Source: an uncultured Haloferula sp. (GTDB taxonomy: Bacteria > Verrucomicrobiota > Verrucomicrobiia > Verrucomicrobiales > Akkermansiaceae). From it: 64,000 nucleotides of DNA. The stretch covers positions 512,001-576,000 of the forward strand of contig CBFGTS010000001.1 in assembly GCA_965652295.1 (NCBI GenBank), written 5' to 3'. The notes under the pieces are model-generated. The model ran no database searches, was not told the DNA's origin, and saw nothing but the letters and a program-made list of their open reading frames with translations. This document shows, one piece after another, positions 29,085 to 54,021 of this stretch (the first letter of the stretch is position 1; the number at the start of each line of letters is the position of its first letter). Made by a program: the position numbers and the translations under genes.

Positions 29085-29088
29085 TGGA

Positions 29089-29334: not shown

Positions 29335-29473
29335 CACGATTCACCCTCTGAAGGGCTTCAGTCAGTCAGAGGTCTGCTGAAAAGCGTCTAAGGAGCCCGC
29401 CTTGTGTCTCACCACTGGCGGGCTCCATTGCGATTGCGAACTTAGAATTTCATTTGGCGTTACTTGGGGTGGG

Positions 29474-30085: not shown

Positions 30086-30098
30086 TGTTATCTTTTCG

Positions 30099-30473
30099 TT
30101 ATTCTGGATCGGCCCGGTAAAGGGCGCGAATGTCATCGATCATGGATGCCAGCTCCGTTTCGTCCGGCTCCTCTCCTCGCATCGCGCGAAAGAAGGCCGG
30201 TAGCTTTGAGACCACGCCCTCACGTTCGAGGATGTCGGATGGCAGTTCATTACGGGCGAGAGATGCCGCATCGAAAAGCTCTTGCCGCTGTGCGCCGGAG
30301 ATTTCCAAGAGATCGGCGACTTGAGACAGAATGGCGACATCGCGCGGTGGTGGATTCACCCCCCGTTCCACCTTGCTCCAATTGCTCGGATCAAGTCCGA
30401 GTTGCGAACAGAATTCGCGGAGGCCAAGGCGGCGGGAGATGCGAGCAGTCTTGATGGTTTCATTGAACTTCAT
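30099..30473 (-). CDS. XRE-family HTH transcriptional regulator
   Basis: FNETIKTARISRRLGLREFCSQLGLDPSNWSKVERGVNPPP; ends 13 bp before the peptidase start. Confidence 0.9.
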   Translation of the reverse strand: MKFNETIKTARISRRLGLREFCSQLGLDPSNWSKVERGVNPPPRDVAILSQVADLLEISGAQRQELFDAASLARNELPSDILEREGVVSKLPAFFRAMRGEEPDETELASMIDDIRALYRADPE

Positions 30474-30586
30474 GTGTAGTGCCCAAAATTGGCCGATTCG
30501 GGCGGTTCGGTTGGCGGTTTTCGTACATGGCTGGATTTTGTCACTATAGAGGAGCAGCATCGGGCTGCGGCACCAGCGACATGAGC

Positions 30587-30643
30587 TTGATATATCAACC
30601 GTGGTAGAAATCAACCACAAATGTGGTTGGATTTTACCACGGT
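30587..30643. promoter_or_regulatory. Long inverted repeat (operator) overlapping an extended -10 for the XRE gene
   Basis: 22-bp arms 30598-30619 and 30622-30643 (19/22 complementary); TGGTAAAAT on the minus strand; adjacent palindrome TTGATATATCAA (30587-30598). Confidence 0.65.
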
Positions 30644-30785
30644 GCTCGTGAGCCTTGTTCGCTTGGACTCCAGCACGGCCCCTCCGCAGCGGGAAGCGAA
30701 AGAATGGCCCGGAAATGGCCCGCTAGCGAAATCGCCAGAATCAGCGGTGAACCACGGGAGCGTCACAACCCTCTGAAAAAGAGGA

Positions 30786-30871
30786 TGGTGGGCAGAGAAG
30801 GATTCGAACCTTCGTAGGCTTGCGCCAGCAGATTTACAGTCTGCCCCATTTGACCGCTCTGGTATCTGCCC
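30786..30871 (-). tRNA. tRNA-Tyr(GTA)
   Basis: GGGCAGATACCAGAGCGGTCAAATGG; anticodon arm GCAGA-CTGTAAA-TCTGC; variable arm; encoded CCA. Confidence 0.96.
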
Positions 30872-30976: not shown

Positions 30977-32485
30977 TCAGCTCTCGGGGCCCCAGTAGCG
31001 GGCGAGTAGATCCTCGATGAGTAGAAAGCGCTGGCCCTCGCCGTTGCGGCGGGTGGTGAGCTGGAGAACCACCGGGATGCCGACGCCGCGCAGCATCTGC
31101 TGGAAGACGGGGCTCTCCTGGTCGGCCTCGTTGGAAAACACGGCGTCGAGCTTGGCCGCGGCGAGGGAGCCCCGTTTGGCGAACGCCACGTAGCTGCGGC
31201 CTTCGATGGGCGCGGTGAGCTGGTAGGCTCGGTAGTTTTCGTTGCCGGCATCATCGGGTTTCACGAAGAGGTGGAAGCTTCCTTCATCGCCTCCGGTGCC
31301 GGCGGCGAAGTGGCGGAAGGCGTCGTCGTGGAACTCGCGGAACATGTCCCAATCGATCTTCCAGTCCTCGCCCTGCTGGAAGAGGGTGACGGGGAAGCCT
31401 TGGGGGAGCGCGGGGGTGGTGACGTCGAATCGGTGCAAACCGGGCGCCACGACAGGGCCTTCGATACCGGTGTAGGCGATGGGACCGTCGCCGGTCTCGG
31501 CGGCGTGCTGTTGCATGCGCTCGCGCAGTGGGTCGGGGTCGAGGACGTGGGGGAGTCGCTTTTCCCAAGTGGGAGCGTCGAGGAAGGCCTCAAGGATTTC
31601 GCGTGAGCGCGGGATCGGGTCGTCGGGCCGTGCGATCTCGGCCGGGTCGGGCGTGGAGGGAGGTTCTGAAGGAGGAGGTGGAGAAATGAGAGGAGGCAAG
31701 GTCGGTGCCGCGTCGGGGGCGGGGAGATCGGTCGCTTCGCTCGCTGGCGCCGGCGTGGTGCGGAAGATCGGGGCGGCGAGGCAGTTTCCCCTGAGGGCGA
31801 GAAGCTGACCGGTGACCAGACCGATGAGAAAGAACAGGAGGCTGGCGAGGATGAGGACGGCCCAGCGAAGCCGCCCGAGTGCGGGGAGTTCGATGCGCGG
31901 GTGATCCGGCGAGGACTCGGAAGCGGTCGAAGGACCCGGTGTCTCCGGCTTGAAGGGGGAGGAGGGTGAAGCCGGAGTCGGGTGGGCGGAAGTGAACATC
32001 CCCTGTTCCTCCGTTTCGGCGAACCGCGGAACCGGCACTGCGGTGGGAGGGGATTCCCAGACGTCCTCCGGCGGGAGTGGGGTGGCTTCGGGCAGGGGTT
32101 CCGGAGCGGCGGGGATCGGCTCGGGCTCGGAAGGCGGAGCGGGTGATGGAGCAGGCTCCGGCTCGGAGAACGGCGCGGGCGGCGGCACCGGCTCCGGAGG
32201 TCGGCGGAAATACGGGCGGGGGTCGCCTTCGGGTGTTGGGGCTTGCGGGGCGGCGGGGCCGGGTGGGCCGGGGGTCGGCACGAGTTCGGGGAGAGGTGCG
32301 ACGGAGACCGGCGGCGCGGGTTCATGCGCGGCGGTGGCGGGAAAGGGCTGGAACGGATCGCTCGTCCGCGGGGGGGCGGAGATCCGTTTGCCGCAGGCCG
32401 GACAAGGGCCGGGCACGTCCGCGGAGGACGCCGGGACCCGCAGGAGGATCCGGCAGATGGGACAGTGAAACTGAATGACCTCCAT
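30977..32485 (-). CDS. Membrane protein with an N-terminal zinc ribbon, Pro-rich linker, TM helix and C-terminal domain
   Basis: CPICR...CPACG; long Pro-rich tract; WAVLILASLLFFLIGLVTG. Confidence 0.8.
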   Translation of the reverse strand: MEVIQFHCPICRILLRVPASSADVPGPCPACGKRISAPPRTSDPFQPFPATAAHEPAPPVSVAPLPELVPTPGPPGPAAPQAPTPEGDPRPYFRRPPEPVPPPAPFSEPEPAPSPAPPSEPEPIPAAPEPLPEATPLPPEDVWESPPTAVPVPRFAETEEQGMFTSAHPTPASPSSPFKPETPGPSTASESSPDHPRIELPALGRLRWAVLILASLLFFLIGLVTGQLLALRGNCLAAPIFRTTPAPASEATDLPAPDAAPTLPPLISPPPPSEPPSTPDPAEIARPDDPIPRSREILEAFLDAPTWEKRLPHVLDPDPLRERMQQHAAETGDGPIAYTGIEGPVVAPGLHRFDVTTPALPQGFPVTLFQQGEDWKIDWDMFREFHDDAFRHFAAGTGGDEGSFHLFVKPDDAGNENYRAYQLTAPIEGRSYVAFAKRGSLAAAKLDAVFSNEADQESPVFQQMLRGVGIPVVLQLTTRRNGEGQRFLLIEDLLARYWGPES

Positions 32486-32535
32486 GAAACGGTGTGTGTC
32501 GGAAAGGTGACAGAGACTCTTCAGGCTGTCGACCT

Positions 32536-33180
32536 TCACGCCCAGCTCCACGAACCCTGCCCCTCACCTGTGGCCAGAGCGAAACTGTAGGCCGCAAGGT
32601 GCTGGATTTCAGGGCGATGAATGCGGAGCCCGGCGAACTCATCGAGCGTGCCCCGTGCCCGGTCGGCGAAGATGCGCACCGCGGTGGGTGGGTGAGTGAA
32701 GCCGGTGCCGAGGCATTTGAGAACCGCCTCCTTCGCCGTCCAGATATCGATCAACCGCCGTCCCTTCTCGGAGTCCGGCTGTTCCTCCACCTCCGCGATT
32801 TCCTCCGGATGGCAGAAGGCCTGCTCGCATCCGATGAGTTCGTCGCCCCGCCTCAGAGCCTCGAGGTCGACCCCTACGGGGCCGTCCCGGGAAACGGCCA
32901 GCACGCCGTATCGGTCGGTGTGGGTCAGATTGAAGTGCAGCCGGGTTCCGTCGAGAAACGGCTTTCCTTCGGGAGTCGCGCGCCAGACCAGCTCGCGGGC
33001 GGGCAGTCCGGTGTGGGCTCCGAGGCATTGGCGGACCTGGGCCCGGAATGAGGACCATCGATTCCGATCCGCCTCGAAGACGAAACGGGCCGCTTGATTT
33101 CGTTCGGCGGGAGACAGCGCCTCCGACGCTTCCGCAGCAGTGAGGAGTCCGGGGTCGAGGAGGTGGAGCAGAACGGGCAC
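32536..33180 (-). CDS. Sfp-type 4'-phosphopantetheinyl transferase
   Basis: GKP, FNLTHT, VGVDLE, WTAKEAVLKCLGTG; divergent from the PKS-NRPS. Confidence 0.93.
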   Translation of the reverse strand: MPVLLHLLDPGLLTAAEASEALSPAERNQAARFVFEADRNRWSSFRAQVRQCLGAHTGLPARELVWRATPEGKPFLDGTRLHFNLTHTDRYGVLAVSRDGPVGVDLEALRRGDELIGCEQAFCHPEEIAEVEEQPDSEKGRRLIDIWTAKEAVLKCLGTGFTHPPTAVRIFADRARGTLDEFAGLRIHRPEIQHLAAYSFALATGEGQGSWSWA

Positions 33181-33432
33181 GGCGGTGGCGGGGTGGGCGA
33201 ATTTGACAAAATTCCAGCGAGGGATGTCAAAAATACTTAAAATCGCTTCCTACGGAATCGCGTGGGTTCGGGGCGAAATCATCACAACCCTTTTTGGTTA
33301 AGGGTGTTGTGGGTGAAGTTGTTCTTCCGGAGTTCGGTCTGAAAATCTTGTAAAACCAAACTATCTTGTTAGTCTGCGCCTGCGATTCCCCCCATTGAAT
33401 CGCCTTTCACCCTACCCCATACCTCGCCAAGC

Positions 33433-36400
33433 ATGTCCCACGCCCCCTTGGTTGCGGTGCGCCTTAGTGCCACCTTTACGGCCGATCCCATCGTCCCCGT
33501 CCTTTGCCGCTGGTTCGACTCATTCGGCCTCGGTATTCCGGTGGAGGTCACCCCGATGCAGCAGGTTTTGCAGCAGTTGCTCGATCCGGGCAGCGCGCTT
33601 TCCGGAAATCGCGGAGGCGTGAACATCCTGCTCATCCGGGGAAGTGATCTCGCCGTGGACCATGCGGCCCGCGCCCGCTCCGCCGCCCGTGAAGTCGGTG
33701 CCGCGCTGGCGGAGTCGGTTTCCCGCGATGGTATCCGCACGCTGGTCGTGCTGTGTCCCGTCCGGGATGGCGGCGAGGCGGAGGAGATCTTCCGCGACGA
33801 GCTGCGCGATCAGGTCGCCGAAGTCGCGGGGGCGGAGTTCTTCGACGGCGGCGAGGCTGCCGGCCTGTATGACGTCGGGGAAATCTTCGACTCCGAGGCC
33901 GAAGCCGCGGCGTCGCTGCCGTTCACCGAGCCGATGTTCACCGCCCTCGGGACCACCCTCGCCCGGAAGGTGATGGCCGGACTGCGGAAACCGATCAAGG
34001 TCATCGCCGTCGATGCCGATCACACGCTGTGGAACGGCGTGGTCGGGGAGGTTGGATCGCGCGGCGTGGAAATCAGTTCCGCTCGCCAAGCCTTCCAGCG
34101 CGGGTTGATCGATCTCGGCCGCCAAGGCTACCTGCTGTGCCTGGTTTCCAAAAACCATCCGGATGATGTCGAGGCGGTCTTCCGCGAGAATCCGGACATG
34201 GTCATTCCGCGTGATGCCTTCGTGGATGCCGTGGTGAACTGGGAACCGAAATCCGCCAATCTCCAGCGCCTCTCCACCGATCTGAACCTCGGCCTCGACG
34301 CGTTCCTTTTCCTCGACGACAGCCCGGCGGAGATCGCCGAAGTCGCGGCCAACGCACCCGCCGTGTTGGGAGTGCGCGTCCCGGAAAACGAGGATGAGCT
34401 GGCGGGTTTCCTCCGGCATCTGTGGGTGCTCGATGCCCACTCGGTCAGTGCCGAGGACGCCCAACGGACCGATTTTTATCACGACGAAGCGCGCCGTCGC
34501 GAGCTGCGCCAGCGCACGTCCAGCTACGAGGAATTCATCGCCGGGCTCGAACTGCGGATGGACATCGCGGCGCTCGATGATTCCAACCTTGCCCGTGCCA
34601 GCCAGCTGACGCGGCGCACGAACCAGTTCAACTCCTGCCCCCGCCCGCGCGACGAGGCCGAGCTGCGGGAAGGTTCCCGCGGGATGGTCGCGAGGCTCGT
34701 CGAGGTCAGCGACCGCTTCGGTGACTACGGTGCGGTGGGCCTGATGATTTTCCGCGAGGACGGCGGCCGCCTGTGGGCGGAAACCTTTCTCCTGAGCTGC
34801 CGCGCGCTGGGTAAGGGCGTCGAACAACGCATGCTTCGCTATCTCGGCGAGGTGGCTGGAGAGCTGCACCTCGATGAAATCGCGATCTGGTTCAGCGACA
34901 GCGGTCGCAACCAACCCGTCCGCGATTTCCTCGAAAGCCAGCCCGGCCGCTGGGAAGACGAGCTGCGGATCATCCCCGCCGCCGCGGCGCGCGAGTGCTC
35001 GCTGGTGCCTTCGGCCGTCTCCGCCCGGTCGCAGGCGGTCGTCGCCGGAGAGCCGGTCACCGACGCCGAACACATGGCCACCATCGCCCGCGAACTGCGC
35101 ACCGCCGCAGCCATCGCCGCCTGGATGGCCGAGCCGGTGAAATCCCGCCCTGAGATCTCCGAGCGCTTCGTTTCTCCGGAAGGCCCGGTGGAGGAAAAGA
35201 TCGCCGCCATCTGGGCCGGCGTGCTGAACCTCGACAAGGTCGGCCGCAAGGACCGGTTCGTCGATCTCGGTGGCAACTCGCTTCAGCTCGTCCGCGTGCA
35301 CGCGCAGGTCCAGCGGGAGTTCGGCAAACATTTCGAGCTCGTCCGCATGTTCGAGCACCCGACCGTTGAGGAGCAGTCGGAACTCGTCGCCGGTGCGAAA
35401 GCGACTACGGCAGATGTCGTAGAAACCGTTTCCGAAAGCTCGGAGAGCGACGCCCTGGCGATCATCGGCATGGCCGTCCGCCTGCCCGGCGCGAACACAC
35501 CCGAGGAGCTGTGGGAAAACCTACGCAACGGCGTGGAGTCGATCGAACGCTTCACCGCCGGCGACGAGGATGTGCCCGGCCCCGCCGACGACCCGGCCTT
35601 CGTCCGCGCCCGCGGGCTGCTCGCGCCCGAGTTGTACGAGGGCGTCGATGGCGGACTGTTCAGCATCCTGCCACGCGAGGCGGAGATCATCGACCCGCAG
35701 CAACGCGTCTTCCTCGAACTCTGCTGGGAAGCGCTCGAGCGCGGAGGCTACACGCCCGACGCCGCCGAGGCCCAGGGCGGTCGCACCGGCATCTACGCCG
35801 GCTGTTATTACGATACCTACCTGCCGCACCACATCCTGTCCGATCCCGAGTTGCACCGCCGCCATCTTTCCGAAGCGCAGGTCGGCGCGCTGCAGGTGGA
35901 GTTCGGAAATGACAAGGACCACCTCGCGACCCGCGTCGCCTTCAAGCTGAATCTCAAGGGCCCCAGCCTCACCGTCCAGACCGCCTGCTCCAGCTCGCTG
36001 GTCGCCGTTGGCCATGCGGCGATGTCGCTGCGCGCCGGCCATTGTGACATGGCGCTCGCCGGTGGCATCACCATCACCGTTCCGCAAAAGCGCGGCTACC
36101 ACCACGAGGAAGGCGGCATGCTTTCCCGCGACGGCCATTGCCGGCCCTTCGATGCCGACAGCTCCGGCACGGTGTTTTCCAACGGCGGTGGCGTGGTCCT
36201 GCTCAAGCGGCTCAAGGACGCCATCCGCGATGGCGACCACATCCATGCCGTGATCCGCGGCTACGGCCTCAATAATGACGGCGGCACCAAACACAGCTAC
36301 GCCGCGCCGAGCGTCGATGGCCAGGCGGACGCGATCCGCCGCGCCCATCTCGATGCCGGTGTCGACCCCCGCACCATCACCTACATCGAGGCTCACGGCA

Positions 36401-39400
36401 CCGCCACGCCGCTCGGGGACCCGATCGAAATCGCCGGCCTCACCGCCGCGTTCCGTCAAAGTACGGCGGACACCGGGTTTTGCGCCGTCGGTTCGCTCAA
36501 ATCGAACCTCGGTCACCTCGACACCGCCGCCGGTGTCTGCGGACTCATCAAGACCGCGCTTTCCCTCGAGCATGGCGAACTCCCTCCCGTGCTTCATTTC
36601 CAGACGCCGAACCCGCGCATCGACTGGGCCGGCTCGCCGTTCTTCGTCAACGACACGCTCCGGCCATGGCAACCCGCCGGGGGCGCACCGCGCCGCGCCG
36701 GTGTCAGCTCCTTCGGCGTCGGCGGCACCAATGCCCACGTGGTGCTCGAAGAAGCGCCGCGCGACGTCACGCCGCGCGAGGAACCGCAGGGTCCGCGCCT
36801 GTGGGTCCTCTCCGGACGTACGACTTCCGCCGTAGATGAACTCGCCGGGAGGCTCGCCGCCTTCGCAGAAGGTGGCCGCCGCGATTCCTTCGCCGCCGCC
36901 GCCCGCACCATGTCGCTCGGCCGCAAGGCCATGACCCAGCGCGCCGTCGTCGTCGCCCGCGATTGGGATTCGCTCGCCAGCACGCTGCGGGATGCCCGCC
37001 CCGCCGCGATCGAATCCGCCGCCAGCGCTCCCGGACTTGTCTGGATGTTCCCCGGTCAGGGGGCGCAGCACCCGGGCATGACAGCCGACCTTTATGCGGC
37101 CGAGGCGGACTACCGTGCCGACATCGATTTCTGTGCCGACAACCTCAAGCCGCTGCTCGGCGAAGACCTGCGCGACACGCTTTTCGCCGAGGACGGCGAC
37201 GCCGCCGAGCGACTCAAGCACACCGTGCTCGCGCAGCCCGCGATCTTCGTCGTCGAATGGGCGCTGGCCCGCCAGTGGGCGCGTTGGGGCGTGCTGCCGG
37301 AACTCATGATCGGCCACAGCGTCGGCGAGTTCACCGCCGCTTGCCTGGCCGGTGTGTTCTCGATCGAAGACGGCCTGAGGATCCTCGCCGCCCGCGGAAA
37401 GCTGATGGGCGGCATGCCCGGCGGCTCGATGCTCTCGGTCCGTCTTTCCGCCGAAAAGCTCCGTCCGCGTTTGCCGCAGGGCGTCGACCTTGCCGCCAGC
37501 AATGGACCCGACCTCTGCGTCGTCGCCGGTGAGCGCGATGCGGTCGCCGCCTTTGCCGCGCAGCTTGAGACGGGGGGCGTCAACGTCCGTGAACTCCATA
37601 CCTCGCATGCTTTCCACAGCTGGATGATGGATCCCGTCGTCGAGCGCTTCCGCAAGGTCATCGAGGGGGTGAAACTCCACACGCCGAAGATGGCGATTCT
37701 TTCCACGGTGACCGCCTCGCGCCTTACCGACGAGCAGGCGACTGATCCCGGATACTGGGCCTCGCACCTGCGCCACACCGTTGATTTCCACGGAGCCATC
37801 GCTGCCGCGGCCGGGGAAAAGGAAGGTCGCCTCTATCTGGAAGTGGGTCCCGGTCAAACGCTCACCACGCTTTCCCGCCAGACCGCCGGCCGCCTCGGAA
37901 AAGGCTACGTCGCCAGCTGCAATCACCCTGCCTCCGACGCGCCCGACCACGATCGGCTGCTGCTCGCCGCCGGCGAGCTCTGGGCCCATGGCGCGAAGAT
38001 CGATCTCGCCCGTTTCCACGCCGATGCACCGGCGCAACGCGTGCCACTGCCGACTTATCCCTTCCAACGCCGGCGCGCGTGGCTTGAGTGCCGCCTGCTC
38101 GATCGGCCGGTCGAGCGCCTCGCACCGCTGCCGCAATCCGGAACCGTGGCCGACATCGCGGAGGTCCCGGTCATCGCCGCCGCGAGCATGCTCGATCAGG
38201 TCAGGGAAGTGCTCGAAGGCCTTTCCGGCATCCCTGCGGAGGAAATGGAGCCGCGTTTCAGTTTCCTGGAGCTCGGATTCGATTCGCTGCTGCTCACCCA
38301 GGCCGCGCGGGAGCTCGGCAAGACCTTCGGCGTGCCGATCGCGTTCCGAGATCTGATGCAGAATTTCCCGACGCTCGCACAGCTCACCGCCCATCTGGAA
38401 AAGCACGCCGCGCCGGTTGCCCGGGCCGCCGCGCCGGCTCCGGCTACGGCATCTGTCGTAGTGACGCCACCGCAGGATGCCGCCGCTCCCGCCGACATGC
38501 TCGGCCGTGTGCGCGAGGTGCTGGAGGCGCTCTCCGGGATCCCGGCCGCAGAGATGGAGCCACGCTCCGGTTTCCTCGAACTCGGCTTCGACTCGCTGCT
38601 GCTCACCCAGGCCGCGCGAGAGCTCGGCAAGGCTTTCGGCGTGCCGATCGCCTTCCGCGACCTGATGCAGAGCTATCCGACGCTCGCCCAGTTGGTCGCT
38701 CACCTTGAAGCCAATGCGACTGCCGCGCCGTCCGCTCCGGTCGCCAAAGCGGCACCGGTTGCCGTTCCGGCCACCCCGGATCAGCCCGAGGAAGAGTCCG
38801 GAGTTTCCGGCCCGCGCACCCGCATCGACCGCACCCGCAGCGGAGACGAACTCACGCCGCCACAGCGCGCCCACCTCGAGCAACTCATCGCCGAATACTG
38901 CGAGAAGACCCGGACCTCGAAAGCCAAGACCCAGCAGTTCCGCAAGTGGCATGCCGACCCGCGCACGGTCAATGGCTTCAACCGGCTCTACAAGGAGATG
39001 GTCTATCAGATCGTCGCCACCCGCATGAAGGGCAGCCGGATGTGGGACGTGGATGGCAATGAATACATCGACATGGTCAACGGCTTCGGCCCGAACTTTC
39101 TCGGCCACGCGCCCGACTACGTCACCGAAGCCATCCAGGAAGCCCTGGCCACCGGTCTTGAGATCGGCCCGCAGTGCGAGACCGCCATGGAGTGCGCCAA
39201 GCTGTTCTGCGAGGTCACCGGGAACGATCGCGTCTGTTTCCTCAACACCGGCTCGGAAGCGGTGCAGGCGGCGATGCGGATCGCGCGGACGGTCACCGGC
39301 CGCGACAAGATCCTGGTCTTCGACAAGGACTACCACGGCAACTTCGACCCGGTCCTCGTCCGCTCCGTCGGCAAGGGCGCGCGCCGCCGCACGCTGCCGC

Positions 39401-42400
39401 TCGCGCCCGGAATTCCGGACAGCGCGGTGGGTGATGTGATCGTGGTGCCGTGGGGCAAACCCGAGGCGCTCGACATGATCCGCGAGATCGCCCACGAGCT
39501 GGCCGCCGTGCTCGTCGAACCGGTGCAGAGCCGCCAGCCGGAGCTGATTCCGATCGAGTTCGTCCACGAGGTGAAGAAGATCTCCGAGGAGAGCGGCTTC
39601 CTGCTGGTCTTCGACGAGGTCATCACCGGCATCCGCCAGGGACCGGGCGGTTCGCAGGACCTCTACGGCATCCGCGCCGACCTCGCGACCTACGGCAAGG
39701 TCTTCGGCGGCGGTGCCCTGCCGATCGGCATCATTGGTGGCAAGGCGAAGTACATGGACACCTTCGACGGCGGCCAGTGGCAGTATGGCGACGATTCCTT
39801 CCCGGAAAAGGAAGTCACTTTCTTCGCCGGCACCTTCGTCCGTCTGCCTCTCGCCATGGCCGCCTGCCGTGCGGTGCTGAAGCACGTCCAGGCCCAGCCG
39901 AAATCCTACTGGCAGGACATCGGTGCGCGCGCCGATCGCCTCGCCCGCACGGTGGACCGTATGTTCCGCGACCACGGGATCGACGTTCGCATGGTGAACT
40001 TCAACTCGCAGATGTATCTCCGCGTCGGCGAGAGCGAGAAGCACGGCAACCTGATCTACTATCATCTCCGTAAACGCGGGGTGTTCGCGATGGAGGGGCT
40101 GCCCTTCTACCTGACCGCGGCGCATACGGACGCCGATGTTGATTTCGTGATCAATGCCTTCCGCGAAACGATCGCCGCACTCCAGGACGGCGGCTTCTTC
40201 CCGCGGCTCTCCATTTCCACGGAAACCGAAGCGGCTCCCGGAGTGCGAGGGCCGTTCCCGATGACCGAGCCGATGTCCGAGCTCTGGCTCGCCTCACTGC
40301 TCGGTGAGGAGGCGAACCTTGCTTTCAACGAAATGCTCCAGCTCCGGCTGGAAGGAAGCATCGATCTCGCCGCCGTCCGGCGCGCCTTGCAGGACCTCGT
40401 GGATCGTCACGACGCACTCCGTCTCCGCGTGCCTTCGCAGGAGAGCCCGCAGTTCGTGGTCGATTCGCGGCAGGAGATTTGTCTGATTGAAAAGGACTTC
40501 CGCGGGCTGGCCGATGCCGAGCAGAGCCTCGTCGAGGCCGGCCTCGAACAACGTGAGACGCCCTTCGATCTTGCCCGTGGTCCACTCTTCCGGGTGGTGG
40601 TCGCCCGCCTGCGCGACGACCTCACGGTGCTTCAATTCGTCGCCCACCATCTTGCGGCCGATGGCTGGTCATTCGAGGTCCTGATGAAGGACTTCAAGGT
40701 CTGCTACGAAGCCCGCAAGGTCGGCATGAAGCCGATCCTCAAGGGAGCGCCGTCGATCGTCGACCGCGCGCTGCGCGAACACCAGCAGGGCGGGGGAGAC
40801 GAAGCCGCGCTGGACTGGTGGCGCGAACGCTTCGCCAGCGGCGTGATCGAGGCCGATCTGCCCCTCAATAAGCCCTATGGCGCGGAGCCGGTTTACCGTT
40901 CCGCGACCTGCGAACTGATGCTCGACCGCACCATCGCCGAGCGCATGAAGGAGCTCGCCCGCAAGTGCGGCGCGACGCTCAACAGCACGCTCCTGGGTGG
41001 CTTCGAGGCGCTCGTCCACAGGCTCACGGGACAGTCCGAGTTCGTCCTGACTTTCCCCTCCGCCGGGCAGATGAGCTCGAACGAGGAGGCCCTCGTCGGT
41101 CATTGCGTGAATTTCCTGCCGCTGCCCGCCGAGGTCGACCCCGAGGCCTCGTTCAAGCAAGTCGTCGCCAAGGCGTCGTCGAACCAGCTCGACGTCCTCG
41201 AGCACGGCGAGATCACCTACGGGCAGCTCCTGCGCGCGCTGAAGCTCGGTCGCGATGGCGGTCGCCGGCCGATGATGGAGATCATCTTCAACCTCGAGCC
41301 TTCCGGCGATCCCGGCTACATCGGCAACCTCCGCGCCAAGGTGGAAACCGTTCCGGCCCGCTACAGCAATTCCACGATCTTCCTCAATCTCATGATCATG
41401 CCGGACGGCCTGCTGCTGTCGTCCACCTACAACCGTGAGTTGATCGACGAGGGCACGATGATGGCCTGGCTCGAGTCCTTCCGGGAGCTGCTGCTTGATG
41501 CCGCCCAGGATCCGACCAAGCCGGTCGGTCTGCTCAACCTTCTCGGCTCCGAAGCCCGTGCCCGGATCGAATCGTGGAGCCAGGGAGGAAGTACGGTGCT
41601 TCCCGTAAGCGTGTCCGACCGCTTCCGGGAAACCGCCGAGACCCACGCCACGCGCACCGCCCTGGATTGGGACGGCGGCAGCATGAACTACCATGATCTT
41701 GCCGCCCGCGTGTCCGGTCTCGCCAACGAACTCATCGCCCGCGGCGTGCAGCCCGGCGACCGCGTGGGCATCCACCTCGAGCGGGGCCCGGAGTTGATCA
41801 TTTCCATCCTCGCCGTGCTTGAGGCTGGCGGCTGCTACGTGCCGGTGGATTCCGGCTTTCCCGCCGACCGCCGTCGCCAGGTCTTCAACCAATGCGATGT
41901 GCGCCTCGTGCTCACCTGCGGCGATGGCGATGGCTGCGCGACGCTCGATCCGTCGACGGTCGGTACCGGTCCGGCCGGGCCGGTCCGCCGCCGGCCGCAC
42001 GATCCGGCCTACGTCATGTTCACCTCCGGCACCACCGGGGTGCCAAAGGGTGTGGTGGTCCCGCATTCCGGCATCATTCGGCTGGTGACGAACACGAAAT
42101 ACTGCCAGTTCTCACCGGAGGAAACCTTCCTCCAGGCGGCGACTCCGGCCTTCGATGCCGCCACGTTCGAGATCTTCGGCCCGCTGCTCAATGGCGGCCG
42201 GCTCGTTCTCCTCAACCCCGGCGAAACCTCGCTGGCGGACATCGCCACCGCGATCCGCGACAAGGGGGTGAGCACCGTGTGGCTCACCGCGGGATTGTTC
42301 GAGCTGATGGTCGATGAGCACCTCGACGACCTCAAGGGTTTGCGCCAGCTCCTCGCCGGTGGCGACGTGCTTTCCGTGCTCCACGTGCAACGCGCCTATC

Positions 42401-44160: not shown

Positions 44161-44245
44161 TGGTTTGAAAACCCCGATCTTTAGCATGAGTGATATTGAC
44201 TGAAATTGAATCCATTCCGCCCTTTGTTTATTTCCTGACCCCCCG

Positions 44246-45520
44246 GTGAAATATCTTCTTCCAACCCGATCCTCGCGGATTCCGGCGATGGTCGCCTGTC
44301 TGATGCTGACGGGCCTGACCGCGATGAGCCGTGCCCAGCAGGGGCTCGACGAACTGGTGGAATATCACCCCGTCCAGCGCGTCGAGGACTCACGCGTCGA
44401 CGCCGCCATGGGTGAAGCGATCTGGCTCCCGCCGCGGGAAATGGAGCTCGAACCCGAGCCGGTTGAGCAGGGTTGGAACATCGGCGTGCAGCTGGACGCT
44501 GCCTACAACGACAATATTTTTCTCAGCCGCTCGAACCCCGAGGCCGACGTGGTGATCCGCCTCACGCCGAAGGTGGAGTGGGTCCACGGCGTGGAGGGCG
44601 ACGAAGGCGCACATCTGGCGGTTGTTTACCGTCCGTCCGGCGTGGTCTATCTCGATCACGGTGGCGACAACCGGATCGATCACGAACTGACGGTCGCGGC
44701 GGGGTATGAGGGACCCCGGACCGGCGTCGTTTACCAAGGAGGCTTCCGCCGCCTCGGCGAACCGACGTCCGAGCTGGGCGGCATCCGGTCCGATCGCACC
44801 GAGTCCGCGAACGAGCTGCGACTGATCTGGAAGCCGAAGGAAAAGATCGGCGTGCAGGTGGCCGTCGGCCAAACGACGCGGGACTACGACGAACCGATCC
44901 TGGCGGGGTCCGAATCACTTTATCTTGAGGCGGCGCTGGAATATGCCTACTCGCCGAAGACTCGCTTCATCGCCGCCTATCGCAGCGGCAGGTTCGAGGT
45001 GGATCGCTCGCCGGAGCAAACCTTCGATCAGGCCACGTTGCAGATGGTATGGCAGCCGCGCGAGAAATGGACCGTGAGCCTGAAAGGTGGCGTGGAATGG
45101 CGCGACTACGCGCAGGGTGGGGATGCCTACGGGGTGTTCGACGCCCGTGTGGAATGGGCTGCACGCGCCGGCACCTCGCTGTTCGTTGCGGGCTACCGTC
45201 GTGAGGACGTTTCAGCGGTGTTCGCCGGGCAGAACATCGAAGTCACGGGTGTCAGCGCCGGTGTGCGGCAAAAGCTCGGCGAGCGCTGGACCGCCACGGT
45301 CGAGGCAGGCCTGGAGCAATCCGACTACAAGGTCGTCGCCGGGGCGGGTACGGCGGGCCGCAGTGACGAGGTGATCTTCGTCCGGCCGGCATTGCAGTAT
45401 TCGATCAGCGAGGATTTCCGGCTCGGCACGTATTATCGGTATGAAAGGAACGCGTCCACGGCCGCCGCGTTCGGTTACGACAATCACCAGATGGGAGTGG
45501 AACTTGAATATGAATTTTAA
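44246..45520 (+). CDS. Outer-membrane beta-barrel protein of EPS export loci (start may be ATG 44288)
   Basis: Signal peptide; YNDNIF near the N-terminus; amphipathic strands; C-terminal ELEYEF. Confidence 0.85.
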   Translation: MKYLLPTRSSRIPAMVACLMLTGLTAMSRAQQGLDELVEYHPVQRVEDSRVDAAMGEAIWLPPREMELEPEPVEQGWNIGVQLDAAYNDNIFLSRSNPEADVVIRLTPKVEWVHGVEGDEGAHLAVVYRPSGVVYLDHGGDNRIDHELTVAAGYEGPRTGVVYQGGFRRLGEPTSELGGIRSDRTESANELRLIWKPKEKIGVQVAVGQTTRDYDEPILAGSESLYLEAALEYAYSPKTRFIAAYRSGRFEVDRSPEQTFDQATLQMVWQPREKWTVSLKGGVEWRDYAQGGDAYGVFDARVEWAARAGTSLFVAGYRREDVSAVFAGQNIEVTGVSAGVRQKLGERWTATVEAGLEQSDYKVVAGAGTAGRSDEVIFVRPALQYSISEDFRLGTYYRYERNASTAAAFGYDNHQMGVELEYEF

Positions 45521-46085
45521 TCTGAAGCATCTCTGGCTGGGCTGCCTGCTGGCTCTCGGGGTCGGCCTGGTTCCGGCATCGGCCCAGGAAGCCTCGTCCG
45601 GCATCATCGGCAGCCGCGACAGCGTCGAAATCCGGGTTTTCCGCGAAGATGACCTGACCACCCGCGCCCAGCTCTCCGCCACCGGGGAGGTCGAAATGCC
45701 GCTGATCGGCGCGGTGAAAATCGCCGGTCTCACCACCAGCGAAGCCGGCCGCGTGATCGAGCGGAAGCTGCGCGATGGCTACCTCGTGAAGCCCGAGGTG
45801 AGCGTGGCGATCACCGGACGCGTCCGGAAAACCGTGACGGTGCTCGGTCAGGCGCAGAGACCGGGCGTGTTCCAGCTCGATCCGAACCGCGAGCTGACCA
45901 TCGTCGAGGCCATCGGTTTGGCGGGCGGCATGACGCGCATCGCCAACGCGAAGAAGATCACTCTCAAGCGCAAGGGCTCGGCGAAACCCTACCGGGTGGA
46001 CCTCCGCGCCATCACCTCGGGCGAGGCGAAGGACATCCCGCTGCGGGATGGCGACGTGATCACGATCCCTGAAAGCATGTTTTGA
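45510..46085 (+). CDS. Short Wza/OPX-type polysaccharide export protein (Poly_export plus SLBB)
   Basis: D.VEIRVFREDDL, MPLIG.V..AGLT, VTVLGQ..RPG, AIGLAGG, LRDGDVITIPE. Confidence 0.88.
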   Translation: MNFNLKHLWLGCLLALGVGLVPASAQEASSGIIGSRDSVEIRVFREDDLTTRAQLSATGEVEMPLIGAVKIAGLTTSEAGRVIERKLRDGYLVKPEVSVAITGRVRKTVTVLGQAQRPGVFQLDPNRELTIVEAIGLAGGMTRIANAKKITLKRKGSAKPYRVDLRAITSGEAKDIPLRDGDVITIPESMF

Positions 46086-46095
46086 TCCGACCTCG

Positions 46096-48276
46096 ATGAA
46101 TCATCACCTATCACGAACGGAACCCCAGGTTTCCCCCGCCGCGCCCGGTCCGGCGGGTGGCGCGGATCCGACGTTTTTCCTGCCGAAAGTCGAGGTTTCC
46201 CGCGTCGCCGGGTTCCTGCGCCGCTGGGCATGGCTGCCGCTGGCGCTGGCCGTCCTCGGAGGGCTGGTCGGCTGGTTCATCGCCCAGCGGGCGACGAAGT
46301 ACTACGTCTCCCATGGATCGGTCTACGTCAGCACGGAGGCGCCCAGGATTTCCGAAATCCAGGCATCGACCACCGAGGAATCGCGCGATCTGGAGCAAAT
46401 GCAGTCGGTCGAGCAGGGCATGCTTTCCAACATGCTGCTGATGCAGGTGGCGGACCGGCTGGGTCTGGCCAAGGATCCGGGCTTCGCCCCGGAGGCGACC
46501 ACGGATCAGCAGAGGCTGGAGGTGCTCGCGGACCGCGTGGACGTGGCCCTGCGCCGCGGGACGCGACTGATCGATATCACCGTGGAAGACACCGACCCTG
46601 AGCGCGCCCGCCGGATCGCCGAGGCGGTGAAGCAGGAATACGAGTCGCTCAGCGCCGACCGTCAGGAGGTCATCCTGCAGGAGATGATTGCCGGCCTCGA
46701 CGTGGAGGAACGCCGGTTGCGGGCCAAGATGGAGGCATCGCAGCAGGCGGTGCGGGATTTCCGCGAGCAGCATCCGGAGCCGGGCCTCGATGGTCAGCCG
46801 GGCACGGGGAGCGCCCGCGATGAACTCTCGGTTCTGGGAGCGCAGCTCACCGAAGCGAAGACGGGGCGGATGAAGCTGGAGTCCGAGCGCGAGGCGTTCG
46901 CGCGCTTCGATCCCGAGGATCCGGATGCCCTTGCCGGCCTGCCGCAAAGCGAGACGGCGACCGAGGTGGCGGGGCTTCTGAGAGAGGTGCGCGCCAAGCA
47001 ACTCGACTTCGCCCGCGTCAAGGAACGCTATCTTTTCAAGCACCCCGAATACCAGCGCGCCGAGGCGGAGCTGACTGAAACCATGAGGAGCCTGAAGGCC
47101 GCGATGGTGACCGCCGGTGAAGCGATCGAAAAACGTTACCGGATCGCGCTGGAGAACGAGCAGAAGCTCGAGCGCGAGGTGGCCGCCGCCAAGACCCAGG
47201 CGGTGGATGTCGAGGGGATGCGGAGCGAGTTCGTCCGGCTCATGCGCCTGGCGGAGAACAATGTGGAACTCCACCAACAGGTTTCGCGGCAGTTGCGCGA
47301 GGCGAACCTCGCCGGCTCGGTGCCGGCCTCGGTGCTGAGTTGGCGCGATCAACCGACGGTGCCGGAGAAGCCGTCCCGTCCCCGCAAGGTCCTGATGGTC
47401 GGGCTGGGCTCGGTGCTGGCCTTCTTCTTCGGACTCGTCGCTGCGGTGGGCCTGGAGATGTCGGATCGGAAAGTCCGTGGTGCGGCCAGCGCGATGCGGG
47501 CGACCGGGGTTCCGATGTTGGGCCAGCTTCCGGCGGGCGATGGGCGCTCCGGGGCTGTGGTGCTTTCCGATCCCCGTTCGGCGTTGGCCGATGCTTTCCG
47601 CCGCCTCCGCGTGGTGCTTTCCCCGAGCCCGCAGAGCGGCCGGGTGCCATCGATTCTCTTCACCTCCGCCACCGCGGGGGAGGGAGCCTCCTTCTGTGCG
47701 GTGAACCATGCGGTCTCGCTCGCGTTGGAGGGCCATCGCACCTTGCTGATCGATGCCGATCTGCGGACTCCGGGCATCAGCCGCGAGCACCTGCGCGAGC
47801 GGGCCGGCCACCTCGGACTCGGCGGCTACCTCGAAGGACGGGCCACCGCTGCCGACGCCTGCGTCCGCACACCGGTCCCGGCGCTCTACCTCATTTCCTC
47901 CGGTGAAATGCGCGGGGATGCCTCCGAATTGCTGTCCCGCACCCGGCTTCCGGCCTTGCTGGAAGAGGCGGGCAGTTGGTTCGACCGCGTCGTCATCGAC
48001 GCTCCGGCCGTGCTCGGATCCAGCGACGCCCAGGTCGTCGCACGCAGCGCCGACCGGACCTGCCTGGTCGTCGGCGAGGCAGGCGCGAACCGCCGCGAGC
48101 TGCGCGAGGCGGCCAAACACCTTCGCGATGCCGGCGGCAATCTCGTCGGCTTCATCTGGAACGAGCATCCGGTTGGGCCCGGCGAGGCCCCTTCGCTGGC
48201 CGTCGCGCGGGAGGGAATCGCAGGTAATTCCCACGACGACTTGATTGTTTCTCCCCCTAACCGCACTTCATCTTGA
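46096..48276 (+). CDS. Wzc/GumC polysaccharide co-polymerase with a degenerate BY-kinase domain
   Basis: Two TMs flanking a coiled coil, PEKPSRP motif; DAFRRLR, TSATAGEGAS (Walker A lacking Lys), IDADLR, VIDAP. Confidence 0.9.
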   Translation: MNHHLSRTEPQVSPAAPGPAGGADPTFFLPKVEVSRVAGFLRRWAWLPLALAVLGGLVGWFIAQRATKYYVSHGSVYVSTEAPRISEIQASTTEESRDLEQMQSVEQGMLSNMLLMQVADRLGLAKDPGFAPEATTDQQRLEVLADRVDVALRRGTRLIDITVEDTDPERARRIAEAVKQEYESLSADRQEVILQEMIAGLDVEERRLRAKMEASQQAVRDFREQHPEPGLDGQPGTGSARDELSVLGAQLTEAKTGRMKLESEREAFARFDPEDPDALAGLPQSETATEVAGLLREVRAKQLDFARVKERYLFKHPEYQRAEAELTETMRSLKAAMVTAGEAIEKRYRIALENEQKLEREVAAAKTQAVDVEGMRSEFVRLMRLAENNVELHQQVSRQLREANLAGSVPASVLSWRDQPTVPEKPSRPRKVLMVGLGSVLAFFFGLVAAVGLEMSDRKVRGAASAMRATGVPMLGQLPAGDGRSGAVVLSDPRSALADAFRRLRVVLSPSPQSGRVPSILFTSATAGEGASFCAVNHAVSLALEGHRTLLIDADLRTPGISREHLRERAGHLGLGGYLEGRATAADACVRTPVPALYLISSGEMRGDASELLSRTRLPALLEEAGSWFDRVVIDAPAVLGSSDAQVVARSADRTCLVVGEAGANRRELREAAKHLRDAGGNLVGFIWNEHPVGPGEAPSLAVAREGIAGNSHDDLIVSPPNRTSS

Positions 48277-48366
48277 CATTTAAGACCTCTGCGCAATGAT
48301 GCGGGTCCCTCACCGCGTTTAGCGGCGCGTAGACCGCTCCCCAAGCTGTCCCCCCCACCCCCCAAA

Positions 48367-49866
48367 ATGAACCTCACGACACCCCCCCGGTCGTGCGAAT
48401 CTCCCGTTTCTACGGGAACCGCGCCTGAACGAAGGCAGCGTTTGTTTACGCTGCGTCACCGCCATCGTACTTGGATGGCGCACCAGAAACTGGTCGCCCT
48501 GAGTTTCCTCGGCGATTCCGCGATCGTTCTCTTCAGCCTGCTCTCGGCGTATTTGCTGCGATTCGAGACCAGCTTCCGCGAAGTGGGCGTGCTCGATCAT
48601 GCGATCGACATGCGCGACTACGCCGGCCACGTCATCCTGGGCGGCGTGCTGATGATCTTCCTGCTGGCGAATTTCCGCGCCCACGATCCCCGCAATTTCC
48701 TGGCGATCCGGCGTACGCTTTGCCTGGTTTTCAAGTCGGTCGCGATCTGGCTGGTGCTGTTCCTCGGCTTGGCGCTGCTTTTGAAAATCGAGCCGCCGAT
48801 CAGCCGGATGTATTGCATCATCGGCGCGTCGCTCGCGGTCGTTTCCCTGAGCCTCTGGCGTTGGGTGCTCTATTGCCTGCTGCGCCGTGAACCGATCGCC
48901 TCCGCGTTGCGGCAGAAGGTGGTGTTCGTGGGTTGGAATGAGGACTGTGAACGCGGTGCCGCCCGTTTCTCGGAAGGTCGGGCCCATGCGTTCCAGGTCC
49001 TCGGCCGGATCGCCACGGATCGCGATGAAGCGACCGTCGGTGACGTGCCGGTCCTCGGGGATTTCTCCGACGCCCGCCATCTGCTTCGCGAAACCGGAGC
49101 CGATGTGGTGATGGCCGTGGATGGTGCCCTCGATCGCGTCCAGATGATCGAACTGGCGGAGACCTGCGGCAAGGAGTTCATCGACTTCAAGCTGATGCCC
49201 AGTTGCTTTCAGGTGCTCGTCTCCGGTCTCCAGCTGGAAACCGTCCACGGGGTGCCGGTTCTCGGTGTCGGCCACCTGCCGCTGCACCACGCGATGAACA
49301 ACGCCGCGAAGCGCGTCACGGATGTGCTGGGTGCGCTCTTCGGGCTTCTTTTCTTCGCCCCGATCATGGCGATCTTCGCGGGCCTCGTTTATCTCGAAAG
49401 CCGCGGTCCGGTGATCTACCGTCAGCGCCGCATTGGCCTCAACGGCAAGCCTTTCGAAATCCTGAAAATCCGCAGCATGAAGCTCGATGCCGAGTCCGGC
49501 GGTGCTCCGGGTTGGACGGTTTCCGACGACCCGCGCCGTCTCAAGGTCGGAGCCATCATGCGCGCCTGGAACATCGATGAGCTGCCGCAGTTCTGGAACG
49601 TGCTGCGCGGCGAGATGAGTCTCGTCGGTCCGCGTCCGGAACGCCCGGAGCTGATCGAGGATTTCAAGGAGGACATCCGCTACTACAACGTCCGTCACAA
49701 CGTGAAGCCCGGCGTGACCGGCTGGGCCCAGGTCAACGGTCTGCGCGGGGACACCTGCCTGCGCGAGCGCGTGAAGTTCGACCTCGACTACATCGAGAAC
49801 TGGAACTTCTGGCTCGATGTCCAGATCATGTTCCTGACTTTCTTCAAGCGTAAGGGTGCCTGCTGA
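48367..49866 (+). CDS. Priming polyprenyl glycosylphosphotransferase (WcaJ/GumD-like)
   Basis: KRVTD, FEILKIRSM, DDPR, IDELPQFWNVLRGEMSLVGPRPERP, KPGVTGWAQVNG, DLDYIENW. Confidence 0.95.
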   Translation: MNLTTPPRSCESPVSTGTAPERRQRLFTLRHRHRTWMAHQKLVALSFLGDSAIVLFSLLSAYLLRFETSFREVGVLDHAIDMRDYAGHVILGGVLMIFLLANFRAHDPRNFLAIRRTLCLVFKSVAIWLVLFLGLALLLKIEPPISRMYCIIGASLAVVSLSLWRWVLYCLLRREPIASALRQKVVFVGWNEDCERGAARFSEGRAHAFQVLGRIATDRDEATVGDVPVLGDFSDARHLLRETGADVVMAVDGALDRVQMIELAETCGKEFIDFKLMPSCFQVLVSGLQLETVHGVPVLGVGHLPLHHAMNNAAKRVTDVLGALFGLLFFAPIMAIFAGLVYLESRGPVIYRQRRIGLNGKPFEILKIRSMKLDAESGGAPGWTVSDDPRRLKVGAIMRAWNIDELPQFWNVLRGEMSLVGPRPERPELIEDFKEDIRYYNVRHNVKPGVTGWAQVNGLRGDTCLRERVKFDLDYIENWNFWLDVQIMFLTFFKRKGAC

Positions 49867-49890
49867 TCGCGGCTTCCCAGCCCGCGCCGG

Positions 49891-51237
49891 ATGTTTATGA
49901 TCGACCCCGTGGAAACAACGGAGGCTGTCGATCACGGCGCGCGGCGGGATTTGTCGATCCGGCTCGCCGTGCTGACCTCCTTCCTTTCGAAGGGCGGCAC
50001 GGTGCTTCTGCAACTCATCGCCTTGCCCGCAGCCCTGCGGGTGATGGGCCGCGCGGAGTTCGGGATTTTCGGCACCGTGAGCACCGCGCTCGCCACCGTC
50101 CATCTGTTGGAGATCGGTATCGGCCCGGCCCTGGCCCACGGCATTTCCAAGGCAGGGGCCACGGATGACCACGATCTCCGCCGCCGTCTTGCCTCGACCG
50201 CATTCTTCTTGGTCGCGGCCATCGGAGTGCTGGCGGGGCTGTTGCTCAGCGGGGTTCTGCTGACCGTTCCGATCACCTCGCTCTTCGGCGAAAAGTACGC
50301 AGGCACGGAGGCGGCGATGCGGCCGGCCTTGTGGCTGGGCCTCGGTCTTTTCCTCGGGCTCTATCTGCTCAACCTCACCGACCGGCTCCGTGAGGGGCTT
50401 CTGGAGGTCGCCTCCACCAATACCTGGGGCGCGGCGGGCAATGTGCTGGCGGCGATCGCCGTCGGCATCGGCGTATTATGGATTCCCGAGGTGTGGTACC
50501 TGGTCCTCGCCGTCCATGGCTCGGTGGTCCTGGCGAAACTGGGGAACACCGTCTCGCTGTGGCGACGGCACGTCGATCTGCGACCGCGGCTGAAATCCCT
50601 CGATCGTTCTTTGGCGCGTCTGCTGGTGAGCGATGGAGCGGCGTTCGCCACCTGCGCCCTGCTCGTGGGTTTCGTCGAATACAACGTCTGCACTTGGCTG
50701 GTCGGGCACCGCAGCGGACCCGACGTCGTCGCGCTCTACATGATCTTCGTGCAGGTCAGCGTCATGCAGCTCGGCTTTGTCATGATGCTCAGCACGCCCA
50801 CCTGGCCGGCCGTGGCCGAGGCGCTGGCCCGCGAGGATGTCGCGTGGGCCCGCCACGCGTCGAAGCGGCTTTACCTGCTCGGGATGGGTTTCGCGGCGTG
50901 CGCGGCGGTGGGGTGGGTCACGCTCGGTCCGTGGGTGTTGCACCTGTGGCTGGGCGATGAGTTCACCGGCCTGCCACGGACGCTCATGGCCGCCTTCGCC
51001 TTCTACTTCGCCGCCCACGCGTGGCGGCACCTCAATCACGTCCTGATGATCGGCACCGGCCAGGTCAGAACGCTCGCCCGTATTCAGCTGGTTGAAACCG
51101 CCCTCGTGGCGGTGGCCGCGTGGTGGGCGCTCCACCGCGGTGGTGTCGATGCCATGCTGGTCGCCATGGGCGTCACGATTCTCGCCGTGACGGGCTGGCT
51201 TCTTCCGATCCGCGTGAAGCGGGGGCTCAATGGTTGA
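49891..51237 (+). CDS. Wzx-like oligosaccharide flippase (MOP superfamily)
   Basis: About 12 hydrophobic segments; MGRAEFGIF and EIGIGPAL near the N-terminus; last gene of the EPS run. Confidence 0.8.
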   Translation: MFMIDPVETTEAVDHGARRDLSIRLAVLTSFLSKGGTVLLQLIALPAALRVMGRAEFGIFGTVSTALATVHLLEIGIGPALAHGISKAGATDDHDLRRRLASTAFFLVAAIGVLAGLLLSGVLLTVPITSLFGEKYAGTEAAMRPALWLGLGLFLGLYLLNLTDRLREGLLEVASTNTWGAAGNVLAAIAVGIGVLWIPEVWYLVLAVHGSVVLAKLGNTVSLWRRHVDLRPRLKSLDRSLARLLVSDGAAFATCALLVGFVEYNVCTWLVGHRSGPDVVALYMIFVQVSVMQLGFVMMLSTPTWPAVAEALAREDVAWARHASKRLYLLGMGFAACAAVGWVTLGPWVLHLWLGDEFTGLPRTLMAAFAFYFAAHAWRHLNHVLMIGTGQVRTLARIQLVETALVAVAAWWALHRGGVDAMLVAMGVTILAVTGWLLPIRVKRGLNG

Positions 51238-54019: not shown

Positions 54020-54021
54020 GG

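Follow-up and report, generated by a model that had tools for sequence, protein, structure and literature searches.

Organization of the locus

The window analysed here is a stretch of 64,000 nucleotides from an uncultured Haloferula sp. (Verrucomicrobiota, family Akkermansiaceae), and positions without a prefix are counted from its first letter. It carries a gene for a hybrid of polyketide synthase (PKS) and nonribosomal peptide synthetase (NRPS), hereafter the line, which is followed on the same strand by a cassette of polysaccharide export genes. Functional coupling of the line with the polysaccharide pathway is well supported by the comparisons reported below. The genes concerned are:

32536-33180, minus strand, Sfp-type phosphopantetheinyl transferase (PPTase; PF01648 and PF22624), divergent from the megasynthase
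33433-44160, plus strand, megasynthase of 3575 aa with no internal stops, comprising in order an N-terminal extension; FkbH (~33994-34956); ACP; KS (35455-36600); malonyl-type AT (37039-37887); ACP; ACP; aminotransferase (from ~39004); C (40285-41565); A with valine code (41623-43011); PCP; TE (from 43375)
44161-44245, gap of 85 nt between line and barrel, stop codon to GTG 44246
44246-45520, plus strand, outer-membrane beta-barrel, BBP2/EpsL-like (PF10082 above cut-off, TIGR03014 below cut-off)
45441-46085, plus strand, short Wza/OPX export protein (PF02563, SLBB)
46096-48276, plus strand, Wzc-like co-polymerase (TIGR01007, 107.8 bits against a cut-off of 108.05)
48367-49866, plus strand, WcaJ-like polyprenyl-phosphate sugar-1-phosphate transferase (TIGR03025, 400 bits against a cut-off of 295.55)
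49891-51237, plus strand, Wzx-like flippase (PF01943, 40 bits against a cut-off of 28.2)

The assembly line and its predicted product

The original prediction of a single 3575-residue assembly line was borne out. The reading frame is uninterrupted, and Pfam and NCBIfam profile matches confirmed the domain order FkbH-ACP-KS-AT-ACP-ACP-aminotransferase-C-A-PCP-TE, with four carrier domains. Every catalytic motif that we sought is present, namely DADHT, SCR, GGNS, TACSSS/HGTAT/KSNLGH, GHSVG/HAFH, GFDS (twice), TYGK, HHLAADG, GGNS and GYSYG/D/GEH. The FkbH domain (TIGR01686, aa 188-508) scores 282.6 bits against a cut-off of 146.65 and adjoins an ACP; by structure it matches BF1531 of Bacteroides fragilis (PDB 3SLR, E 4e-21). 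The HAD DxD motif and the SCR cysteine are kept in 79/79 FkbH-bearing proteins among the 120 homologues listed. Further along, the aminotransferase is a class-III enzyme, in line and with its pyridoxal phosphate (PLP) lysine present, in the order KS-(AT)-ACP-aminotransferase-C-A. Motif positions in the A domain give the specificity code DAFWLGGTF(K), a code that PMC9113097 assigns to valine. As predicted, the line ends in an NRPS module (C-A-PCP-TE) and lacks reductive domains: the locus scan found 13 Pfam families, and no KR, DH, ER or terminal reductase is among them. The TE is ordinary, with its Ser-Asp-His triad in place, and its best matches among solved structures are the TEs of NocB and Pks13.

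Enzymes of the FkbH family load a glyceryl unit from 1,3-bisphosphoglycerate onto an ACP. With its motifs present, the FkbH domain here would put a glyceryl starter on the first ACP, and the KS and AT would extend it by one malonyl unit. As there is no reductase in the line, the beta-ketone would be converted to an amine by the PLP aminotransferase. The C domain would then join the aminated acyl chain to the valine that the code places on the PCP, and the TE would release the product, predicted to be 3-amino-4,5-dihydroxypentanoyl-valine. The free acid, C10H20N2O5, has a computed mass of 248.137 Da, and the acyl residue would add 230.127 Da.

Named relatives are close: records from Haloferula, Luteolibacter and other Verrucomicrobiota share 81-96% identity with the aminotransferase region of the line. 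Matches to that region at E 1e-100 or better comprise 7536 of 7994 scored proteins, not all of this kind.

The export cassette and the rest of the pathway

Five co-oriented exopolysaccharide genes had been noted 85 nt behind the line. Their identities as barrel, wza, wzc, wcaJ and wzx were confirmed; they are not a full pathway, as no glycosyltransferase (GT) or Wzy gene is among them. The barrel may start at GTG 44246, the first possible start, or at ATG 44288, and Wza probably starts near 45504. The Wzc protein is likely kinase-dead, judging from a Walker A motif that reads GEGAS, with the lysine absent, and from a tail with no tyrosine in its last 45 residues. In all Akkermansiaceae Wzc orthologues checked that tail contains at most 1 tyrosine, and the Walker A lysine varies (A, T, R, K). 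The 85-nt gap had been described as AT-rich with a TTGACT that could mark a separate promoter. TTGACT is indeed there; a consensus scan lists neither promoter nor terminator in 44161-44245. An RNA run against the locus returned only short, mostly foreign pieces, none spanning the gap. Further on, TTGACA-16-AATGAT at 48273-48300, before wcaJ, may be an internal promoter.

The remaining steps are encoded elsewhere in this genome, outside the window:

G000:C1:38726-42371, three GT4-like glycosyltransferase genes
G000:C17:61855-63216, membrane protein of 453 aa with WaaL/Wzy fold

The C17 protein has no Pfam or NCBIfam match. Its structural model (pLDDT 86.5) has a single significant match, to the WaaL ligase (E 7e-8, TM 0.55/0.61). 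WaaL and Wzy have a common fold, and we read the modelled protein as a Wzy polymerase, with a ligase as the alternative. In relatives the GT genes and the Wzy-like gene, four in all, recur together with the latter inside the GT operon, and they stand beside wzx in G019, G077 and G012. By sequence the genome has an initiating transferase, a Wzx, a Wza/Wzc pair (with degenerate kinase motifs in Wzc) and repeat-unit glycosyltransferases of a Wzx/Wzy pathway, and a candidate for its polymerase. WcaJ would prime the lipid carrier, the three GT4 enzymes would finish the repeat unit, Wzx would flip it, the WaaL/Wzy-fold protein would link the units into a polymer, and export would fall to Wzc, Wza and the barrel.

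Another polysaccharide system is marked, at G000:C22:49353-52114 and C15:32093-36740, by a second Wza/Wzc pair, in which GEGKS and a tyrosine cluster are present, together with a second WcaJ-like gene.

Co-occurrence and linkage of line and pathway

Co-occurrence was examined in one draw of 151 genomes of the family, each at least 90% complete; these are kin and not independent trials. A Wzx-type gene is present in 27 of them, and the Wzy-like gene in the same 27 though mostly unlinked. WcaJ was found in 26 of the 27, the gap being G178, an assembly of 530 contigs. The aminotransferase region matched 26/151 genomes at E 1e-90, namely 25 of the 27 Wzx genomes and G052. Intact aminotransferase lines occur in 25/27 pathway genomes as against 1/124 others (G052, whose NRPS/PKS is larger and reducing).

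Physical linkage, whose absence had been named among the grounds for refuting the original prediction, is conserved as well: line and wzx lie within ~12 kb of each other in 20 of the 25 family genomes with both parts, by coordinates co-oriented in 10 and divergent in 10. In four of the others, all of genus g25, line and wzx are on different contigs, and the remaining one could be placed in neither group. Every linked locus examined retains Wza, Wzc and the barrel along with the pathway. Apart from the Wzx-type flippase, the compared loci hold no small-molecule exporter family that is seen in at least four genomes.

Line and pathway also appear to be lost together. G001 (98% complete) keeps the gene of the type that flanks the PPTase here (30977-32551) and has no match to the line, wzx, the wzy-like gene, wcaJ or the first GT. 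In G012, from outside the 151-genome draw, the sugar genes are broken and there is no KS match, with assembly error possible.

A wider draw of 301 genomes from the phylum gave 6 aminotransferase matches and 3 Wzy-like matches. In genus g96, 4/4 genomes have a line that closes other GT runs, and the 3 that were checked also have a Wzy_C gene. The KS/aminotransferase matches of G052, G098 and G399 belong to other architectures and were rejected as family members.

Decayed loci were also seen. The sugar genes of G012 are all in one cluster (L172:1238-12821), in which the wzy-like, GT and wzx frames are split or short and no barrel or wza is in view. Degenerate lines occur in G036 (L027:5588-15012), where the AT and the PLP lysine are lost and no Wzx orthologue was found, and in G006 (L042-L043), with no detectable AT and the cassette retained.

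Exchange of line types beside one cassette

Three types of line occupy the place beside the cassette. One is the FkbH type, as here. Another has the order A-PCP | KS-AT-ACP-AMT-C-A(-MT)-PCP | C-A-PCP-TE, where AMT is the aminotransferase (G017, G085, G059, G005, G006). The remaining type consists of a nitrilase-family gene, an NRPS and KS-AT-ACP-AMT-C-A-PCP-TE (G033, G037). These types are distantly related, their KS and aminotransferase being ~50% identical, and the slot is occupied in both orientations.

Trees of the two partners disagree. On a KS plus aminotransferase tree of 31 rows, from which short-match rows were left out, the FkbH-type lines form one clade. The cassette trees place G015 and G019 within groups of A-type genomes and join G077 to G085. 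The FkbH genomes as a clade were rejected on the Wzc+WcaJ+Wzx tree (11 vs 6 rows, p-AU 1e-142), in a test set up after earlier trees were seen and with its group defined by line type. These trees show line types exchanged against the cassette tree.

The exchanged lines have one end in common. The final module has a valine-type A domain and a Ser- or Cys-TE in the FkbH lines, the A-primed lines (G017, G006, G085, G059, G005) and the G033 line. Since all three groups end in this way, the carboxyl end is the constant part. NRPS modules are also found at the sugar genes themselves: in G003 the GT-wzy operon is immediately followed by an extra gene, C-A(Val)-PCP-TE, and in G009 extra NRPS modules precede the operon.

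Two further features of these loci were recorded. In FkbH-type lines of genus g25 a Cys (GYCFG) replaces the TE serine (L033:12788-19999, L036:13036-19998, L039:8963-19957). In 8 genomes from other genera than g1, with lines of FkbH and non-FkbH types, the line is directly preceded by a carbon-nitrogen hydrolase gene (for example L034:3698-4534, L025:15034-15807, L051:12709-13494 and L056:10673-11446); there is none beside the line here.

A palindrome common to line and sugar genes

Two candidate control elements lie between the divergent PPTase and megasynthase genes:

33251-33264, no strand, palindrome TACGGAATCGCGTG, consensus TACG-N2-AT-N2-CGTA
33348-33375, plus strand, candidate megasynthase promoter TTGTAA-16-TAGTCT, read by eye

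The palindrome is likely an operator. It is the sole exact match to its pattern in the window, and it stands 147-193 nt before the line in 16/16 FkbH-type loci with upstream DNA. A matrix built from 15 relatives was run on this genome, and its 12 best sites all fall outside called genes, though the genome is 91% coding; 33251-33264 is one of these sites, and another stands before the GT operon. Elsewhere, a site scoring at least 13 precedes the first GT gene in 8/13 loci, and the palindrome is found in 5/5 divergent gaps of the A type and 0/2 of the G033 type. Between line and barrel, a site scoring at least 12 is present in 9/16 co-oriented loci, compared with 17/1500 random windows. In the 85-nt gap of this genome it is absent, the best motif score being -1.2. 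The cassette may often have its own control region and here be under the promoter of the line. With 10/20 linked loci divergent and this site in 9/16 co-oriented gaps, a single operon is not the ancestral arrangement.

Secreted-protein genes are also among those preceded by the palindrome, which would mark a regulon not described before; the 12 sites include C2:13068, C12:43987, C1:172614 and C1:191696. A dispersed repeat was rejected as an explanation, the flanks of 16 sites being unrelated. As to the promoter, a CTTGT box recurs at its place in the alignment of relatives and the consensus scan does not report 33348-33375, which we regard as a possible megasynthase promoter.

Comparison with known systems

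Related lines were found beyond the phylum. Among 139 records, 30 plasmid matches were listed, some of them from Bacillus, cyanobacteria, Burkholderia and Ralstonia, and 6 annotated alphaproteobacterial ones were opened. All 6 opened lines are surrounded by genes for a flippase, Wza, Wzc, sugar transferases and GTs. Matches of 36-43% come from plasmid loci of Jannaschia, Loktanella, Aliiroseovarius and Rhodobacter that are part of polysaccharide clusters, and two Paraburkholderia records and one from Acidobacteriaceae have a related line in a like context. BamA is among the plasmid-listing matches, at 35% identity.

MycA/ItuA/BamA and McyE are hybrid modules that aminate the beta position, in the order KS-ACP-aminotransferase-C-A. 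As here, their class-III aminotransferase stands between the KS module and the NRPS module. MycA and McyE differ in their fatty-acyl or aryl starter, whereas the line here has a glyceryl loader, one amino acid, no further modules and a polysaccharide context; its FkbH starter, single A domain and terminal TE also led us to reject an identity as iturin synthetase subunit A. The FkbH and OzmB glyceryl-ACP loaders have the same HAD DxD motif and SCR cysteine; here, unlike in those systems, FkbH is the built-in starter of a PKS-NRPS that aminates and does not reduce. RkpA and WcbR are reducing, lipid-making type I PKSs in capsule loci. They too adjoin polysaccharide export genes, but the line here has no KR, DH or ER, makes no lipid chain and ends in an NRPS module. 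A lipid anchor of the RkpA type was accordingly rejected for want of reductive domains. A Flavobacterium NRPS-PKS cluster could not be linked to this family.

The nearest published cases found are an uncharacterised Roseobacter cluster and carenaemin. PMC4337385 describes, in 28/57 Roseobacter-group genomes, an orphan NRPS/PKS/glycosyltransferase/PPTase cluster with an uncharacterised product. Compared by its published description, it resembles the present locus in its small hybrid line, PPTase and sugar-gene context; it has an adjacent glycosyltransferase, whereas here only the WcaJ-type transferase is near and the GT4 genes are elsewhere. The alphaproteobacterial plasmid lines are amino-acid-primed and for the most part close with glycine and a C-TE protein that has no A domain, in contrast to the FkbH-primed, single-chain, Val-TE line here. 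According to PMC8313283, carenaemin of Collimonas arenae is made by a PKS/NRPS with an aminotransferase domain, its production needs a Wzy-type locus, and the authors propose that it is joined to a sugar repeat before flipping. Carenaemin differs in being larger, reduced and a diffusible antifungal from unlinked loci, with structure and mechanism unsolved in that paper. A literature search covering few subscription journals and no supplements returned no paper on this cluster and no PKS/NRPS product shown on a Wzy polysaccharide. New here are the glyceryl-primed, TE-ended form, the dispersed yet co-inherited pathway, the slot exchange and the common palindrome.

A proposed peptide-polyketide on the polysaccharide repeat unit

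The original prediction held that the line makes an amino-polyol acyl-amino acid that decorates, primes or anchors a surface glycan. The predicted chemistry and the functional tie are supported, the tie by co-occurrence, slot exchange and palindrome, whereas attachment to the glycan is our interpretation. With a probability of roughly 0.55, the product is covalently attached, through the TE and the valine carboxyl, to a surface polysaccharide of the Wzx/Wzy type, on its repeat unit. The TE would hand the acyl-valine to the repeat unit of the polymer that the neighbouring genes export. Such a link would explain why the Val-TE end is constant, why different heads are tolerated and why no exporter recurs. 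Of the three roles anchoring is the least likely, because nothing in the line makes lipid.

Several observations weigh against attachment. No acceptor sugar, transfer enzyme or transfer chemistry was identified, and an ordinary TE triad with likeness to NocB and Pks13 cannot tell hydrolysis from transfer. The palindrome also precedes about ten unrelated genes (among them an ECF sigma factor gene, thyA, hisG, trmB and, with a weaker site, a sensor kinase gene), so that co-regulation may mark only a broad programme. Line and cassette are on different contigs in the four g25 genomes, G026 and G182. G098 (90% complete) has the pathway genes and only an unrelated reducing PKS, and G399 combines a Wzy-like gene with a line that lacks an aminotransferase and comes with a separate ABC transporter. 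In G006 the cassette is retained beside a linked line in which no AT is detectable and the aminotransferase has diverged. In G037 the best A-domain match of the last ORF reads a different code, and G037 is not counted among the valine-ended lines. Finally, the 27 positive genomes belong to 3 genera, so that few independent events are represented.

Much of this would also be expected of a free small molecule, such as a signal, a chelator or an inhibitor, that the TE sets free by hydrolysis or cyclisation, its genes sharing only neighbourhood and a surface-growth regulon with the sugar genes. The ordinary TE triad, the breadth of the regulon (the 12 top palindrome sites are at varied genes) and the unlinked state in genus g25, G026 and G182 are in keeping with such a molecule, and the peptide varies between sister genomes whose GT and Wzy-like genes agree, as would a strain-specific signal. 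We nevertheless consider this unlikely, since co-regulation needs neither repeated replacement at one slot nor the placing of NRPS modules within GT-wzy operons. The recurrence of the pairing in several phyla, the joint loss in G001 and decay in G012, and the lack of a recurring exporter at the compared loci also speak against it.

Less probable again is a product built on a lipid-linked oligosaccharide and exported by Wzx to end as a small glycoconjugate or chain-end cap, for which the WaaL-fold protein may be the ligase. A WaaL ligase is the sole significant structure match of the C17 protein, but the fold common to WaaL and Wzy blunts this point, and Wza, Wzc and the barrel, kept in all linked loci examined, point to a polymer. 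For diffusible carenaemin, a route of this kind is proposed in PMC8313283. That the linkage is historical, two independent systems having been co-inherited as neighbours in one lineage, is very improbable and already largely refuted: the positive genomes are kin, 18 of the 27 and the window's own being of one genus, yet distant line types (~50% identical in KS and aminotransferase) share the slot in both orientations and the pairing recurs outside the phylum.

Attachment to the repeat unit may be part of a wider picture, to which we give even odds. In several phyla, small PKS-aminotransferase-NRPS lines would be exchangeable cassettes that hang a peptide-polyketide on a Wzy repeat unit. A fixed Val-TE linker would be kept and the heads swapped between lineages of Haloferula and its kin, giving a serotype-like, positively charged variation of the slime, with line, cassette and GTs as one regulon under the palindrome. 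The swapped heads may be a glyceryl-derived amino-diol or an amino-acid-derived diamine. If this is true, an assembly line of the antibiotic type supplies a side chain to a bacterial surface polysaccharide, and a large set of orphan clusters gains a purpose. The locus is unusually testable, with one gene, a short predicted product of defined mass and cultured close relatives; variants with another line at the same cassette and the relative without the pathway offer natural comparisons.

The divergent genes and flanking regions

Two more genes bear on the PPTase:

30977-32551, minus strand, conserved membrane protein, function not assigned, overlapping the PPTase stop by 16 nt
G000:C1:497478-503537 (L053:5478-11537), minus strand, second NRPS (acyl-ligase-like, ACP, C, A, PCP, Cys-TE with GFCFG)

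The PPTase had been called dedicated, a description that did not hold. It is on the divergent minus strand, the assembly has 2 PF01648 matches including this one, and the second NRPS of this genome sits ~41 kb upstream of it; the PPTase is probably shared. We take the A-domain code of the second NRPS to be of the glycine type. Homologues of this NRPS belong to the G059 cluster and, in G009, immediately precede the GT operon.

Two flanking groups of genes were rejected as parts of the system, not being conserved beside the line. At 51227-57754, minus strand, genes for PSCyt1/PSCyt2/PSD1 planctomycete-type cytochrome c, PPC-domain and DUF1501 proteins converge on wzx, as is ordinary for the group. 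At 28295-30871, tRNA-Ala, tRNA-Leu and tRNA-Tyr flank a stretch of lower GC content (54-57%) with HTH and IrrE/Peptidase_M78 genes, which resembles a small integrated element.

The conserved gene at 30977-32551 had been missed in the original prediction. Its protein has an N-terminal CPxC..CPxC, Pro-rich linkers, one hydrophobic helix and C-terminal NTF2-like and OB-like domains. It has no Pfam or NCBIfam match, and Protein Atlas returned only Verrucomicrobiota clusters without names. For its model (pLDDT 92), the best VIA matches are an NTF2-like chain (Z 9.0, rmsd 2.8, 90 aligned) and an OB fold (Z 7.9), which are common folds, and a Foldseek search with the domain found nothing below E 0.001. 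The gene occurs in 31/151 family genomes, all 27 with the pathway and 4 without. It adjoins the PPTase in FkbH-type loci and wzx in genus g25. Just upstream of the PPTase start, at 33203-33232, lies an inverted repeat, TTTGACA-N16-TGTCAAA, that is also found in G021.

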